DNA from: Candidatus Adlerbacteria bacterium
GTDB taxonomy: Bacteria > Patescibacteriota > Minisyncoccia > Phycocordibacterales > SBAW01
NCBI GenBank assembly: GCA_026397405.1
Contig: JAPLUW010000002.1
Span: 40,214 to 104,213, forward strand
Reading direction: 5' to 3'
Length of the DNA stretch: 64,000 nt
Part shown: positions 41,898 through 51,071 of the stretch, piece by piece
Layout of the letters: every line of letters begins with the position of its first letter
Numbering within the stretch: position 1 is the first letter of the stretch
Notes under the pieces: model-generated
Told to the model about the DNA's origin: nothing
The model's input: only the letters and a program-made list of their open reading frames with translations
The model's database searches: none
Position numbers and translations under genes: made by a program

Positions 41898-42728
41898 CTA
41901 TAATATATCTTTCCCTGGGGCGCACAATAGGGCGGCTTCGTGCAGCACGGCGTCTACTTGTTTACCACGCACCCCCACCCTTTCAAGAGCATTGGTGTCG
42001 TTTGCCAAGGCTTTGCAAAGGACGATTTTTTCAGCCAACAGTAAGGTTTTTTCGTGTTTTGTCAGGGTTGTTAGTGCGGTTATAGGGTACAGCCGCGCTG
42101 CTTCAATACGGTCATGCAAGTTTTGTTTATGTGGATATTCCCACGCAAGCAGGTCCAACCCTTCGCAGCTGGCATACTGCACTGCTTTGGAAGTAAATTT
42201 TGTGTTGGTGACGATAAGCCCGCGGATATCTTGTTTTGGGAGTGCGGCTCGTAGGTCGTCGATGCGTGCTTTTACATACAGCGTAGTTTTTAGATCTGTT
42301 TTAAATGCTGCAGTGTTGTGGAACTTTGCTTCAACGTAGGTCGTTATGTTTCCTTTTTTAATCACAACGTCTACTTCGTGTTCGACACAAGCACCTTGAA
42401 CAATTTGGTCTATCGACGCTTCATACCCTTCTGTGCGAAATAGTTCTGCCAAGTACGCTTCAAACGGGAAGCCTGACGGACCAAATTCAAGCAGGGCACG
42501 CTTTAGAGAGTAATGCGCGGCAGCTTCGTGTTTATGTTCTCGCAAATGTGCAAACGCACGACGATAGATTTCTTCCGTAGGGATACCGTCGTACAGTTCT
42601 TTTGTAATTTCATCGACAATAGTAACGGTCGCCTCTTCGCTTGCTCCTGCCTTATGCAGTGACATTCGCAATTTGAGTGGGTCAAAAGGCTCTAGCGTGC
42701 CGTCGGCTTTTGCAACATGTAGTGACAT
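41898..42728 (-). CDS. ATP-cone domain fused to restriction-endonuclease-like PD-(D/E)xK domain
   Basis: The N-terminus VAKADGTLEPFDPLKLRMSLHKAG fits the ATP-cone pattern (K.DG..E.FD..KI). The central VDVVIKKGN...YVEAKF is a D-(x)n-E-x-K core. Confidence 0.5.
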   Translation of the reverse strand: MSLHVAKADGTLEPFDPLKLRMSLHKAGASEEATVTIVDEITKELYDGIPTEEIYRRAFAHLREHKHEAAAHYSLKRALLEFGPSGFPFEAYLAELFRTEGYEASIDQIVQGACVEHEVDVVIKKGNITTYVEAKFHNTAAFKTDLKTTLYVKARIDDLRAALPKQDIRGLIVTNTKFTSKAVQYASCEGLDLLAWEYPHKQNLHDRIEAARLYPITALTTLTKHEKTLLLAEKIVLCKALANDTNALERVGVRGKQVDAVLHEAALLCAPGKDIL

Positions 42729-47090: not shown

Positions 47091-48191
47091 TTATTTTACT
47101 AACGAGAACCGTGCGTCTTTGCCGCGTTTAAAATATTTTTGATTCTGCAGGTTTACAACAATAGTGCCCGGCTTAACGTGACGTTCTTTCAAAACCTTTT
47201 CGATAATTTCGTCTTTGGTAAGTGGGCCACTTGCACGGAGGATTTCGCGGATAACATCGCGGACAACGCCTGACGTATATCCCCACTCTTTCAGAGCGTA
47301 CATACCGCGACCAACAAGCACAAAACGGTTGTCTTTGATAAGTTCGTTGTGCGTTGTTGCAATATGTGCAGCACGGTTAAACATTTTCTCTATAAGTGTT
47401 GCAACCTCGCGGAAGTGCAACGGGCTGCCATGCTTTTTAACGGCCAAGTAGGCATAGTCGCGGACGCCTTTTGTTTTAACGTTTGGAGATGCAGAATGAC
47501 CCCATTCGCCAAGCGGGTTTTTACCGATATTTTTAGATATTGAAAGCCAACGCTTCAACACTTCTTTGTTGCGGTGTTTGTCGTTGATTTGCTGGAGCTC
47601 CTTCAAAAAACGGTCGATCATCTCCCCTTCCGGGATCAAATCTTCGTCAGAGAGACCTTTGTAAAGGCTCTGTAGAGCATCTTCGACTTGCTTTGCAAGG
47701 TTAGGGTCGACATACCAGCAACGCTGCGCCTCATCGTCTTCTTTGCGGAATTTAAATGGGTCGCCAAGTACAAGCAGGAAGTAAATATGGTTCTGCATGC
47801 TCGCGTCTTTGGTAATAAAATTGAGCAAGTCGTCTTCGCATACAATACCGCCGAGCGAGTCTATGATGCGTTCAAGTTCGTGGAACGCGGCATTTGCCTC
47901 GCTGAATGCAGGAGATTTTTTGAGCGCTGCGAGTGCGTGGTTTTCTATCTGGCGGACACGTTCGCGGGTAATGCCGTAGCGTTTTCCGATAGACTCCAAG
48001 GTAACGCGTTCAGCACTTGTGCCCAAACCAAAGCGGGCTTCGAGCACAATACGTGAGCGCTCCGGGAGCGCTGTAAGAAGTCTTTTTGCGATGGCCTTTG
48101 GCTTAAAGCCAGTTTTGTCCCCTGTTTTATCGTTTGTTGTGGCCATATATTCGATGTGGTCTAGTATATCACACTCTATTATAGGGGTCAA
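47091..48191 (-). CDS. sigma-70 region-4-like HTH domain protein with large uncharacterised C-terminal domain
   Basis: LPERSRIVLEARFGLGTSAERVTLESIGKRYGITRERVRQIENHALAALKK is a canonical sigma70 region 4 helix-turn-helix. The remaining ~270 aa are unassigned. Confidence 0.5.
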   Translation of the reverse strand: MTPIIECDILDHIEYMATTNDKTGDKTGFKPKAIAKRLLTALPERSRIVLEARFGLGTSAERVTLESIGKRYGITRERVRQIENHALAALKKSPAFSEANAAFHELERIIDSLGGIVCEDDLLNFITKDASMQNHIYFLLVLGDPFKFRKEDDEAQRCWYVDPNLAKQVEDALQSLYKGLSDEDLIPEGEMIDRFLKELQQINDKHRNKEVLKRWLSISKNIGKNPLGEWGHSASPNVKTKGVRDYAYLAVKKHGSPLHFREVATLIEKMFNRAAHIATTHNELIKDNRFVLVGRGMYALKEWGYTSGVVRDVIREILRASGPLTKDEIIEKVLKERHVKPGTIVVNLQNQKYFKRGKDARFSLVK

Positions 48192-48197
48192 ATGGAT

Positions 48198-51071
48198 CTA
48201 TAAGACCACAAAATTAATGATTTTGTTAGGGACATAGATTGCTTTTACCTCCTTGCCCTTGGCCAACCACAGGGCCACAGCGGGGTTTGTGCGTGCCAAA
48301 GTTAGGGCTTCATCTTCTGAGACGCCCGAAGGTACGTCCGTCAAAGACCCGCGTAGTTTGCCGTTTACTTGCACAGCAATAGACACCGTGTGTGAGACAA
48401 GTTTTGTTTCGTCAGCGGTTGGCCACACGCTCCACTCCGAATGTTCGAGCCCTACCACTTCTGCAAGTTCATAGGTGATGTGGGGCGCAAGTGGCGCTAG
48501 TAGCTGCAGTAATGTTACATACGCTGGGCGTGGCACCTGTTCCAGTCCAGCTAAGTGGTTTGAAAATACCATCAACGCAGAAACGGCCGTATTCATTTTT
48601 AGTACATCCAAGTCTTCAGAAACTTTTTTTATTGTTTGGTTGCGCAGTGTTTCTGTTGCAAGGTCTGGCGCAATGTCGGCAACCTTCTCCCCCAACTTCC
48701 ATACACGCTCTAAAAAGCGCCGCACACCGATAATGCTCTTGGTGTTCCACGGCTTCATCGCTTCAAGCGGGCCCATAAACATTTCATAGAGCCGCACAGT
48801 ATCTGCGCCATACAGTTCGATAAATTCGTCTGGGTTTATAACATTGCCAACCGACTTGGACATTTTGGTACCGTCTTCGGCAAGTATCGTCCCTTGGTGG
48901 CGGAGCTTTAAAAACGGTTCGCTAAACGATATGAGCCCAAACTTTTGCAGCGCTTTGGTAAAAAAACGTGCATACATTAAGTGCAGCACCGTATGTTCTG
49001 CCCCGCCCATGTATAGGTCAACCGGCAGCCATTTTTTAATAGCCTCTGGTGAGGCAAACTCGTTTTCATTATGTGGGTCAGCGAAACGGAAAAAATACCA
49101 GGACGAACAAACAAACGTGTCCATCGTATCAATTTCGGGTGTCCAGCCTTTTCCAAATATTTTTTCTGTCCGCTCGAGCAATTCTTTTGACTGACCCAGA
49201 GGAGACACTCCTGTTGGTTTAAACTCGACATCTGTCGGCAATATCCATGGCAAATGCTCTTCCGGCACAGCGTGCGGCTTCCCTTCCGGGTCGTAGACGA
49301 CAGGGATTGGTGCGCCCCAGTATCGTTGGCGCGAAATAAGCCAGTCACGCAATTTATATGTTTTAGTAACCTTACCTCCAACAAATTCAATTATTTTTTT
49401 CTTCGCCTCTTCATTTGGCATGCCGTCAAAGGTTCCTGAATTTACAAGAACTCCATCGCCTGTAAATTGTGCGTTTTGGATATAGTGCTCGAAGTAGAGC
49501 TTGTGGTGGTTTATTAATACAGGGTCTTTAAGAATTTCATCGGCTGTTTTCCACGAACCTTGTTTCGTCTCTTTATCAACAATGTCTGTTCGTTCTCTAT
49601 CTGCCAGCTCGACAATGTATATCCGGTCACGACAAAGTTCTTCGCGTGATTTCCGTACCTTGTACCCACGGGAATAGCCGTATTCAAAAAGCTGTGTGCT
49701 CTTTTTAATATTTTTATACCCGGACTCCTCCGTTGCTTCGCGTACGGCAGTTTCTCCGGGCTTCTCCCCTTCTTCCACGTGTCCACCGACAAAACCATGG
49801 TGTCCCGTGTTGGCAAATTCAACAACATAGTAGAGATCTTTCTCCCAATGCTTAATTATCGCTGATTCCGCATCAAATTTTATAATATTCTCTTCGCTCT
49901 GTGGCGCATCTACTCCGGTGATAACAACGTACGGAGCAACGACCTGTTTTACTGGTACGTTAAATTTTTTTGCAAAGGCAAAATCGCGTTCGTCATGCGC
50001 AGGCACACCCATAACAGCGCCTGTGCCGTAGCCGCCCAACACATAGTCGGCAACATACATGGGGATTTTTTCTTTTGTGGCTGGGTTTATTGCCCATACA
50101 CCTTCCAATTTGACGCCGGTTTTTTCTTTTGCGTCGTCTATTTGTCGGTCGAGGTCGGTTTTATTTTTTGCTGCTACTACATAGGCCTTAACCTCCTCCT
50201 TATTAACTAGCACGTCGTGGTTGTCGTCGATCGCCAGTGTTATCCATGCATGTTCTGGTGCAAGAACCATGTAGGTAACTCCAAAAAGCGTATCGGGGCG
50301 TGTGGTAAAAACAGGAATCAACCCTTCTTTTGTGTCTGGTTTGTCGAAAACTACCTTAAAGCTAACTTCTGCGCCTTCGCTCCTGCCTATCCAATTGCGC
50401 TGGTTTATTTTGGTCGACTCGGGCCAGTCTACTTGGTCGAGGTCGTCGACAAGTGCGTCCGCAAAGTCGGTAATCTTAAAAAACCACTGTGCTAAATCTT
50501 TTTGAACAACTTTTGTCCCGCAACGTACGCAGACTCCTTTTTCGCCGCTTTCAGAAACGGTCTGTTCGTTTGCGAGCACCGTTTGGTCTTTTGGACACCA
50601 ATTTACTTTTGCTACGCGTTTTTCTGCAAGACCGTTATTGTACAAAAACAAAAAAAACCATTGCGTCCATTTGTAATACTCTGGCGTGTGCGTACCAATT
50701 TCTCGCGACCAGTCGTAGGAAAGACCGAGACGTTTAATCTGACCTCTAAAGGTGTCTATAGAAGAGGCTGTTGTTTGGACAGGCGGAATCCCAGTTTTAA
50801 TAGCGTAGTTTTCTGCAGGAAGGCCGAATGCATCCCAGCCCATGGGGTGCAACACATTGTATCCTTGTGCACGTTTGTAGCGACTGTATATGTCGGTAGC
50901 GGTATAGCCTTCTACGTGGCCAACATGCAACCCGGATCCCGACGGATACGGGAACATGTCCAGAATATAAATTTTTTCTTTACTACTAGAGTTGTCAGCA
51001 CGAAACGCTTCCGACTCGTGCCATCGCTGCTGCCATTTTTGTTCAATTTTTTTGTGGTCGTACTGCTCCAT
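48198..51071 (-). CDS. leuS: leucine--tRNA ligase carrying an inserted Nudix hydrolase domain
   Basis: HIGH-like PYPSGSGLHVGH, CP1 editing domain (TTRPDTLFG...GTGAVMGVPAHDERDF), KMSKS (GTKMSKSVGN). Between the editing domain and the catalytic core return (FTGDGVLVNSGTF) lies about 150 aa containing GGHVEEGEKPGETAVREATEESGY, a perfect Nudix box. Confidence 0.9.
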   Translation of the reverse strand: MEQYDHKKIEQKWQQRWHESEAFRADNSSSKEKIYILDMFPYPSGSGLHVGHVEGYTATDIYSRYKRAQGYNVLHPMGWDAFGLPAENYAIKTGIPPVQTTASSIDTFRGQIKRLGLSYDWSREIGTHTPEYYKWTQWFFLFLYNNGLAEKRVAKVNWCPKDQTVLANEQTVSESGEKGVCVRCGTKVVQKDLAQWFFKITDFADALVDDLDQVDWPESTKINQRNWIGRSEGAEVSFKVVFDKPDTKEGLIPVFTTRPDTLFGVTYMVLAPEHAWITLAIDDNHDVLVNKEEVKAYVVAAKNKTDLDRQIDDAKEKTGVKLEGVWAINPATKEKIPMYVADYVLGGYGTGAVMGVPAHDERDFAFAKKFNVPVKQVVAPYVVITGVDAPQSEENIIKFDAESAIIKHWEKDLYYVVEFANTGHHGFVGGHVEEGEKPGETAVREATEESGYKNIKKSTQLFEYGYSRGYKVRKSREELCRDRIYIVELADRERTDIVDKETKQGSWKTADEILKDPVLINHHKLYFEHYIQNAQFTGDGVLVNSGTFDGMPNEEAKKKIIEFVGGKVTKTYKLRDWLISRQRYWGAPIPVVYDPEGKPHAVPEEHLPWILPTDVEFKPTGVSPLGQSKELLERTEKIFGKGWTPEIDTMDTFVCSSWYFFRFADPHNENEFASPEAIKKWLPVDLYMGGAEHTVLHLMYARFFTKALQKFGLISFSEPFLKLRHQGTILAEDGTKMSKSVGNVINPDEFIELYGADTVRLYEMFMGPLEAMKPWNTKSIIGVRRFLERVWKLGEKVADIAPDLATETLRNQTIKKVSEDLDVLKMNTAVSALMVFSNHLAGLEQVPRPAYVTLLQLLAPLAPHITYELAEVVGLEHSEWSVWPTADETKLVSHTVSIAVQVNGKLRGSLTDVPSGVSEDEALTLARTNPAVALWLAKGKEVKAIYVPNKIINFVVL

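Follow-up and report, generated by a model that had tools for sequence, protein, structure and literature searches.

A Nudix hydrolase domain nested in the editing domain of a Candidatus Adlerbacteria leucyl-tRNA synthetase, and its exchangeable relatives in Paceibacteria

We analyzed a 64,000-nt stretch of contig JAPLUW010000002.1 (positions 40,214 to 104,213; hereafter the window) from Candidatus Adlerbacteria bacterium, in which leuS, a single continuous open reading frame (ORF), encodes a bacterial-type leucyl-tRNA synthetase (LeuRS) of 957 aa with a Nudix domain nested inside its CP1 editing domain. The product scored 937.9 bits against the NCBIfam equivalog model TIGR00396 leuS_bact (cut-off 548.4), and its best solved relative was the LeuRS of Thermus thermophilus, 1h3n (E 2e-201). 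The HIGH, CP1 editing and KMSKS elements by which a first-pass annotation, made from the letters alone, had recognized a canonical LeuRS were all located (Table 1). The Pfam editing-domain model PF13603 matched with an E value of 7.5e-57, and the editing residues of TTRPDT and AHDERD were invariant or nearly so across 61 relatives. The LeuRS in the window is complete, and its synthetic and editing sites are intact.

Table 1. Features of leuS and of two other genes in the window. Nucleotide positions are those of the window; residues are those of the 957-aa product.
Feature	Residues	Nucleotides	Strand	Basis or remark
leuS, bacterial-type LeuRS with nested Nudix	1-957	48198..51071	-	single continuous ORF
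Rossmann catalytic core, N-terminal half	1-224	50400..51071	-	PF00133, residues 12-228
HIGH motif, HVGH	49-52	50916-50927	-	motif scan
CP1 editing domain, first part	225-378	49938..50399	-	PF13603, residues 225-380 (profile positions 1-142 of 185)
T-rich editing motif, TTRPDT	256-261	50289-50306	-	motif scan
Conserved Asp motif, AHDERD	358-363	49983-50000	-	motif scan
Nested Nudix domain, 158 aa, type 1 of the LeuRS-associated Nudix family	379-536	49464..49937	-	1h3n alignment
Nudix box, GGHVEEGEKPGETAVREATEESGY	429-452	49716-49787	-	pattern scan; metal-binding Glu445, Glu448, Glu449
CP1, last part, and return to core, TGDGVLVNSGTF...YKLRDW	537-~580	49332..49463	-	aligns with T. thermophilus LeuRS from 378 onward; second PF13603 stretch
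Position of the unmatched leucine-specific domain	~724-733	~48870-48900		
KMSKS motif	736-740	48852..48866	-	motif scan
Sigma70_r4 and HARE-HTH protein		47091-48191	-	directly downstream of leuS
276-aa protein, ATP-cone, Mrr_cat and AF1548-like domains		41901-42728	-	

The borders of the insert were set by alignment with 1h3n, in which the query skips from residue 378 to residue 537 where the reference goes from 362 to 378, so that a loop of about 16 aa is replaced. The first-pass annotation had put the insert at 49467-49937, which is right to within one codon, and had given the Nudix box exactly the position listed in Table 1. Its description of the insert as following the editing domain did not hold up. 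The PF13603 profile is broken at position 142 of 185 at the insertion point, and crystallised CP1 constructs run about 50 residues beyond that point (2ajg was matched to chain residue 143 of 196), the last part of the query listed in Table 1 being more CP1. The Nudix domain therefore sits within CP1, linker-free, in a surface loop that lies roughly three-quarters along the editing domain.

Profile, fold comparison and structural model all agreed on an in-frame Nudix domain, as had been proposed. PF00293 (NUDIX) matched residues 423-525 with 40.8 bits and an E value of 2.7e-10, against a gathering score of 21.1. The strict Nudix box pattern occurred once in the six-frame translation of the window, compared with a mean of 0.0 in 200 shuffles. 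When the box, GHVEEGEKPGETAVREATEESGY, was set against Gx5Ex7REUxEExGU, every G/E/R/E/E/E/G position was kept. The U positions are Ala and Tyr rather than Ile, Leu or Val, so the earlier statement that the box fits at every position was a little too generous. On structure comparison the Nudix fold spanned the whole inserted segment. The closest structures were small nucleoside triphosphate (NTP) pyrophosphohydrolases of the MutT/NudI type (2azw, 3oga/6dt3 NudI and 3grn), and the top fold matches also included diadenosine tetraphosphate (Ap4A), Ap6A and ApnA hydrolases, the NrtR Nudix domain and NadM-Nudix. The full-length AlphaFold2 model had a pLDDT of 90.0 and a pTM of 0.81, with both insert junctions modelled confidently. 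The insert is predicted to adopt a complete alpha/beta/alpha Nudix fold and to fold on its own.

The metagenome-assembled source prompted a check for artefacts, namely chimeric joining of contigs, a frameshift in the gene, or an intron or intein that is removed; nothing was found in support of any of them. The identical 957-aa protein, with the same neighbours, occurred on separately assembled contigs of two sequencing runs, SRR20698643 and SRR20698644, as well as on a 142-kb contig of a metagenome-assembled genome at NCBI, and is therefore not a chimera. NCBI nr also holds the exact protein, under the name 'class I tRNA ligase family protein [Candidatus Adlerbacteria bacterium]'. The ORF is unbroken, and dozens of homologues that are 53-72% identical have an insert at the same site. 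An intein was considered and rejected because the segment, which begins APYV and ends NAQF|TGDG, has no N-terminal Cys, Ser or Thr and no C-terminal His-Asn, and because the Nudix fold accounts for all of it. A transposon or other mobile insertion was likewise rejected. We found only short chance repeats, none of them at the borders, and no break in composition, the GC content being 0.41-0.46 within the insert against about 0.47 on either side. The possibilities that the first-pass annotation had raised against its own finding, an intein or a mobile insertion, were thus not borne out, and we consider an artefact essentially excluded.

The same insert was present in related synthetases. At exactly the query's site, 70 of the 120 best LeuRS matches carried a Nudix insert of 132-163 aa. 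Insert-less relatives had 0-32 residues there, and three relatives had a 210-aa HAD domain. A profile of the insert, searched against 1.84 billion cluster representatives, found 173 at E<=1e-30 and 690 at E<=1e-10. The best 148 family representatives comprised 115 that were embedded in LeuRS, 30 that were free-standing (about 150-260 aa) and 3 others; no aminoacyl-tRNA synthetase (aaRS) host other than LeuRS was seen among the top 150. The source names of the homologues were Paceibacterota, Adlerbacteria, Kaiserbacteria and Yanofskybacteria, all Patescibacteria or candidate phyla radiation (CPR). The 158-aa insert alone gave no match in a collection of 5.8 billion proteins in which the host protein is present, a result that reflects a word-index limit and not absence. 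A scan of GTDB genomes with the type-1 alignment gave, among the matches listed, only generic Nudix-box matches from unrelated phyla. The nested-Nudix LeuRS is lineage-wide and recurrent in Paceibacteria/CPR.

These counts bear on the earlier proposal of a new domain architecture. It is not new to the databases, given the exact protein in nr, the 70 of 120 relatives and the 173 representatives. A full-text search of the literature, on the other hand, yielded no paper on either a LeuRS-Nudix or a LeuRS-Ham1/HAD architecture. The architecture is present in public databases under automated names only and is apparently undescribed.

Nested hydrolases occupied at least four sites in LeuRS. Site 1, before CP1a (about residue 245 of the query), held Nudix, Ham1/ITPase or Ser_hydrolase domains; site 2, the query's own, held Nudix or HAD; site 3, in the later core (about query residues 626-640), held HAD or Nudix; and site 4, before the anticodon-binding domain, held Ham1/ITPase. 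Single LeuRSs contained two or three Nudix modules of different types with ExxEE kept in each, such as types 7, 2 and 9 in P0121, and Ham1/ITPase was found co-nested with Nudix in the same LeuRS. It is unusual for an extra enzyme to be nested in an editing domain, multiplied and exchangeable. One LeuRS of 1330 aa with nested Nudix and Ham1 (P0156/P0282, MCK5490653.1) is named 'RdgB/HAM1 family non-canonical purine NTP pyrophosphatase' in nr, and nested domains of this kind mislead automated protein naming.

Separately, we noted an isoleucyl-tRNA synthetase (IleRS) of 1184 aa with a nested His_Phos_1 domain (PF00300; L042:6094-9648), around which lie ArgRS, three Nudix genes, dUTPase, TMK/dNK and a zeta-toxin-like gene. 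LeuRS is therefore not the only synthetase with a nested phosphohydrolase.

We compared the descent of the inserts with that of their hosts. The nested inserts fell into at least 7 discrete types, inserts of one type being about 55% identical and those of different types about 29%. Host core identity barely differed by insert type (0.70 within, 0.667 between). The core of the query (P0001) was 74-77% identical to those of LeuRSs whose inserts shared only 20-27% with its own, and among hosts sharing a type-1 insert, core identity went down to 56%. Insert type was common to the nearest core neighbour in only 30 of 68 cases, and in a neighbor-joining tree of the core, Nudix-bearing, HAD-bearing and insert-less LeuRSs were intermingled. 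Within type 1 the insert was 57% identical and the core 61%, a similar evolutionary pace. Type 1, the query's type, was a minority and was seen only inside LeuRS among the family representatives typed. The phylogenies of insert and host are incongruent, and this incongruence, together with the intermingled presence and absence, indicates at the level of sequence comparison that the inserts were repeatedly acquired, replaced and lost in the manner of cassettes.

Such behavior might be expected of conflict-driven or selfish cassettes, that is, of arms-race modules against nucleotide-type toxins, aminoacyl-nucleotide antibiotics or the nucleotides of phages and competitors, or of quasi-selfish insertions in an essential gene. 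The strong incongruence with host phylogeny and the interleaved presence and absence fit this idea, as do the multiple sites, the multiple different copies per protein and the unrelated hydrolases found at the same sites. IleRS with a GNAT domain, a curated exception in NCBIfam, provides a precedent for an aaRS combined with a small-molecule-modifying enzyme. However, neither target-site duplications nor terminal repeats were found, nor was an endonuclease or a Hint domain, composition is unbroken, the neighbours are plain housekeeping genes, and nothing shows a relevant toxin in these communities. We regard this explanation as very unlikely.

In the window, the genes around leuS run YchF, DUF5671, leuS, the Sigma70_r4/HARE-HTH protein, YceG and MnmA. 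The Sigma70_r4/HARE-HTH gene comes directly after leuS here and is again its downstream neighbour on other Paceibacteria contigs. Another gene of the window encodes the 276-aa protein of Table 1, whose architecture is unusual: an ATP-cone and an Mrr_cat restriction-endonuclease domain are joined to a C-terminal domain resembling AF1548. We also observed that residues 582-624 of T. thermophilus LeuRS, its leucine-specific domain (LSD), are unmatched in the window LeuRS and in its CPR relatives. A LeuRS without LSD is already known from Mycoplasma mobile (PMC3643597).

Free-standing Nudix proteins were homologous to the nested inserts over the whole domain of 150-160 aa, including the N-terminal PxF...PPR strand, and were 33-61% identical to nested types 2, 3, 7 and 9. 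We sampled the gene neighbourhoods of 10 of them. An aaRS gene adjoined 6 of the 10, and in 3-4 of these it was leuS. Only 2 nt separate P0137 from the Nudix-bearing leuS downstream of it. The same 2-nt spacing is seen on three contigs (L034-L036) between P0182 and an insert-less leuS downstream, a Rosetta-stone complement; the LeuRS of L035 has a 17-aa loop in place of the insert. P0150 belongs to the cluster MetRS-TatD-Nudix-YfbR-like 5'-nucleotidase-Nudix-leuS (L044), in which 4 nt separate the second Nudix gene from the leuS that follows it. A class I aaRS fragment comes after P0208. P0216 is flanked by ArgRS and IleRS and has dUTPase, TMK and further Nudix genes nearby, and P0142 is near ProRS. 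P0190 is found 4 nt downstream of Fpg/Nei, and P0146, P0204 and P0213 have no aaRS nearby. The Nudix family is tied to leuS by gene neighbourhood.

At L046:40-1218, 40 nt separate a free-standing Nudix gene from the 208-aa ORF after it, which covers just the C-terminal region of a class I aaRS (tRNA-synt_1 and Anticodon_1). The contig is short, and either a frameshift or a split LeuRS may account for this.

Conservation of the catalytic residues was examined across 43 family members. The metal-binding Glu residues E67, E70 and E71 of RE..EE (insert numbering), K96 of the hairpin and W129 were invariant or at least 90% conserved. Nine type-1 inserts at 52-63% identity had 38 invariant columns, which include the whole box and a basic hairpin, R-G-x-K-x-R-K-x-R-E-E. 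The box was fully canonical in 41 of the 70 nested inserts. We observed that the joint loss of the Gx5E Glu and the Arg of the box, with Glu replaced by Gln, Met or His and Arg by Met, Ala or Lys, affects type 2 inserts (P0004, P0005, P0007 and others) as well as free-standing P0150, P0204 and P0217, and it looks like the paired loss of interacting residues.

A non-catalytic role has to be weighed against this pattern. The module could be a structural or tRNA-binding appendage, for example one that replaces the missing LSD, or an NrtR-like nucleotide sensor that modulates CP1 movement, aminoacylation or editing. About a third of the nested inserts lack both the Gx5E Glu and the Arg of the box, and ExxQE is found in six; the insert is located in the mobile CP1 domain of a protein whose LSD is absent; the type-1 basic hairpin could contact RNA; and the NrtR Nudix domain is among the fold matches. 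Nevertheless, the box of the query has all catalytic residues, and the three metal-binding Glu are held throughout the family as given above. Since close relatives have the same LSD-less core and no insert, LeuRS can function without it. The module also occurs as a free-standing gene, and unrelated enzymes (HAD, Ham1) can fill the same loops. We therefore judge a non-catalytic role rather improbable.

Markers of substrate class were sought in and around the box. In the X-loop, Tyr residues follow the box at +12, +14 and +18, with none at +17, and the +18 column is mostly Tyr or Phe in the aligned sequences displayed. According to the review PMC5389931, which cites Dunn et al. 1999, a Tyr about 17 residues downstream of the box marks ApnA hydrolases. 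Neither marker of ADP-ribose/NADH pyrophosphatases, a Pro about 16 residues downstream of the box or SQPWPFPxS, was present in the downstream segment KNIKKSTQLFEYGYSRGYKVRK. The best single-sequence Protein Data Bank (PDB) match of the insert by phmmer was the Aquifex Ap4A hydrolase 3i7u, with an E value of 0.0015 over 29 box residues only, followed by CT771. Profile matches to Ap4A hydrolases reached 25-34 bits, no better than those to other Nudix classes, and no significant full-length similarity to characterised Ap4A hydrolases was seen.

The first-pass annotation had suggested that the module might clear Ap4A. As a coupled Ap4A/ApnN hydrolase it would remove the Ap4A or Ap4N that LeuRS forms from leucyl-adenylate and ATP or NTPs, or would act on Np4-capped RNA, and it would provide alarmone control in a lineage that may lack ApaH/YqeK. 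The aaRS genes beside free-standing members, leuS prominent among them, are consistent with this, as are the identity of the best PDB matches, the presence of Ap4A/Ap6A/ApnA hydrolases among the top fold matches, the Tyr-rich X-loop and an invariant basic hairpin that could clamp polyphosphate. Set against these, the similarity is limited to the Nudix box and is no stronger than that to MutT/NudI, ADPRase and decapping enzymes, and the Tyr residues are off the canonical offset. An Ap4A hydrolase would leave unexplained the Ham1/ITPase, HAD and Ser-hydrolase domains in the same loops and the several Nudix types per LeuRS. The restriction to LeuRS among aaRS hosts in the top 150 and the family members beside Fpg, dUTPase and YfbR also speak against it. 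LeuRS is not known to be among the strongest Ap4A producers. No specific support for Ap4A clearance emerged, and we consider it unlikely.

The reading that we prefer, with a probability of roughly 0.45, is that the nested module is an active house-cleaning nucleotide pyrophosphohydrolase, tethered to and co-expressed with LeuRS as a permissive carrier. The insert would act as an independent Mg2+-dependent pyrophosphohydrolase on a free nucleotide, which could be a dinucleoside polyphosphate or else a nucleoside polyphosphate that is non-canonical or in surplus, and would take no part in the chemistry of leucine activation, transfer or editing. LeuRS would serve as a constitutively expressed carrier whose flexible CP1 and other loops accept nested domains. 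In very small genomes, hydrolase paralogues (Nudix types, Ham1/ITPase, HAD and Ser-hydrolase) would repeatedly have moved in, been swapped and been lost, probably by recombination of a leuS-adjacent free-standing gene, or of other leuS alleles, with the conserved flanks AHDERDFxFAKK and NSGxF. Tethering would ensure co-expression with the translation apparatus and may put the hydrolase beside an ATP-consuming active site. The house-cleaning theme is suggested because free-standing members adjoin Fpg/Nei, dUTPase, TMK/dNK, YfbR-like and TatD genes, because Ham1/ITPase is co-nested, and because the nearest structures are of the MutT/NudI type.

Several observations weigh against a house-cleaning hydrolase. 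The Gx5E Glu and the box Arg are jointly lost in about 18 of the 70 nested inserts, and ExxQE occurs in six. Because roughly a third of the nested inserts and some free-standing members have lost this Glu and Arg, catalysis may not be family-wide and may not be the family's common denominator. All NCBIfam Nudix subfamily models scored far below cut-off, among them the 8-oxo-dGTP diphosphatase model MutT PRK10776 (17.4 bits, cut-off 148). The family profile gave 25-38 bits over decapping, ADPRase, Ap4A, NudB, NudI and MutT structures alike. The strong and repeated association with leuS exceeds what a pure hitch-hiker would lead one to expect and could mean functional coupling with LeuRS. The sample of 10 free-standing neighbourhoods is small and phylogenetically non-independent, and the tree of the LeuRS core is a quick neighbor-joining tree.

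A bolder reading, which we think quite improbable, is that Paceibacteria LeuRS, and perhaps class Ia synthetases generally, would be a hot-swappable scaffold. Recombined hydrolase cassettes at no fewer than four loops would couple the nucleotide pool (Ap4N, damaged ATP/GTP, ITP) to leucylation or editing, or would shield the synthetase from nucleotide-type inhibitors. If this were true, it would amount to an unrecognised layer of aaRS biology rather than a passive fusion.

The comparative data, with database entries numbering in the hundreds, suggest a lineage-wide system in which single proteins carry as many as three or four nested hydrolases, modules are exchanged like cassettes and free-standing counterparts share an operon with leuS. 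If the modules are active, ultra-small CPR genomes would entrust the sanitation of the nucleotide pool, or the turnover of alarmones, to an enzyme essential for translation. The comparison also identifies natural permissive insertion sites in LeuRS that are of use for engineering, and it exposes an annotation problem in nr, where a LeuRS can be named 'RdgB/HAM1 family pyrophosphatase'.

Accessory domains of aaRSs are mostly known from eukaryotes and are usually at a terminus. With bacterial LeuRSs (T. thermophilus 1h3n and the E. coli 4aq7 family) the window protein has in common the class Ia core, HIGH, KMSKS, a CP1 with T-rich and Asp motifs, and the anticodon-binding and C-terminal domains. 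It differs from them in having the 158-aa Nudix domain where those have a CP1 loop of 16-18 aa, and from the T. thermophilus enzyme in lacking the LSD. Its synteny, YchF-DUF5671-[Nudix]-leuS-sigma-like, is the same as that of the free-standing LeuRS-adjacent Paceibacteria Nudix genes (P0182, P0137), whereas those are separate genes upstream of leuS and no sampled one is of the query's type 1.

Among Nudix enzymes, the MutT/NudI-type proteins 2azw, 3oga/6dt3 NudI and 3grn are 18-21% identical to the insert and, in contrast to it, are single-domain proteins. The Ap4A/ApnA hydrolases (aq_158 3i7u, CT771, NUDT2 and Rv2985) have the Nudix fold and box and a Tyr-containing X-loop in common with the insert. 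The match to them is confined to the box, the Tyr of the window protein is at +18 (also +12 and +14) rather than at about +17, and no equivalog level was reached. NadM-Nudix (2qjt/2qjo) likewise joins a Nudix pyrophosphatase to a nucleotide-handling enzyme; that protein is an end-to-end fusion within the NAD/ADP-ribose pathway, whereas the LeuRS case is a nested insertion in an aaRS. IleRS-GNAT (NCBIfam NF040702) and the Mycoplasma penetrans MetRS with tandem N-terminal ancillary domains (PMC13215547) are also essential bacterial aaRSs, often from reduced genomes, with an extra globular domain. In those proteins the domains are terminal and of other folds, whereas the hydrolase of LeuRS is nested in the editing domain, exchangeable and multi-copy.

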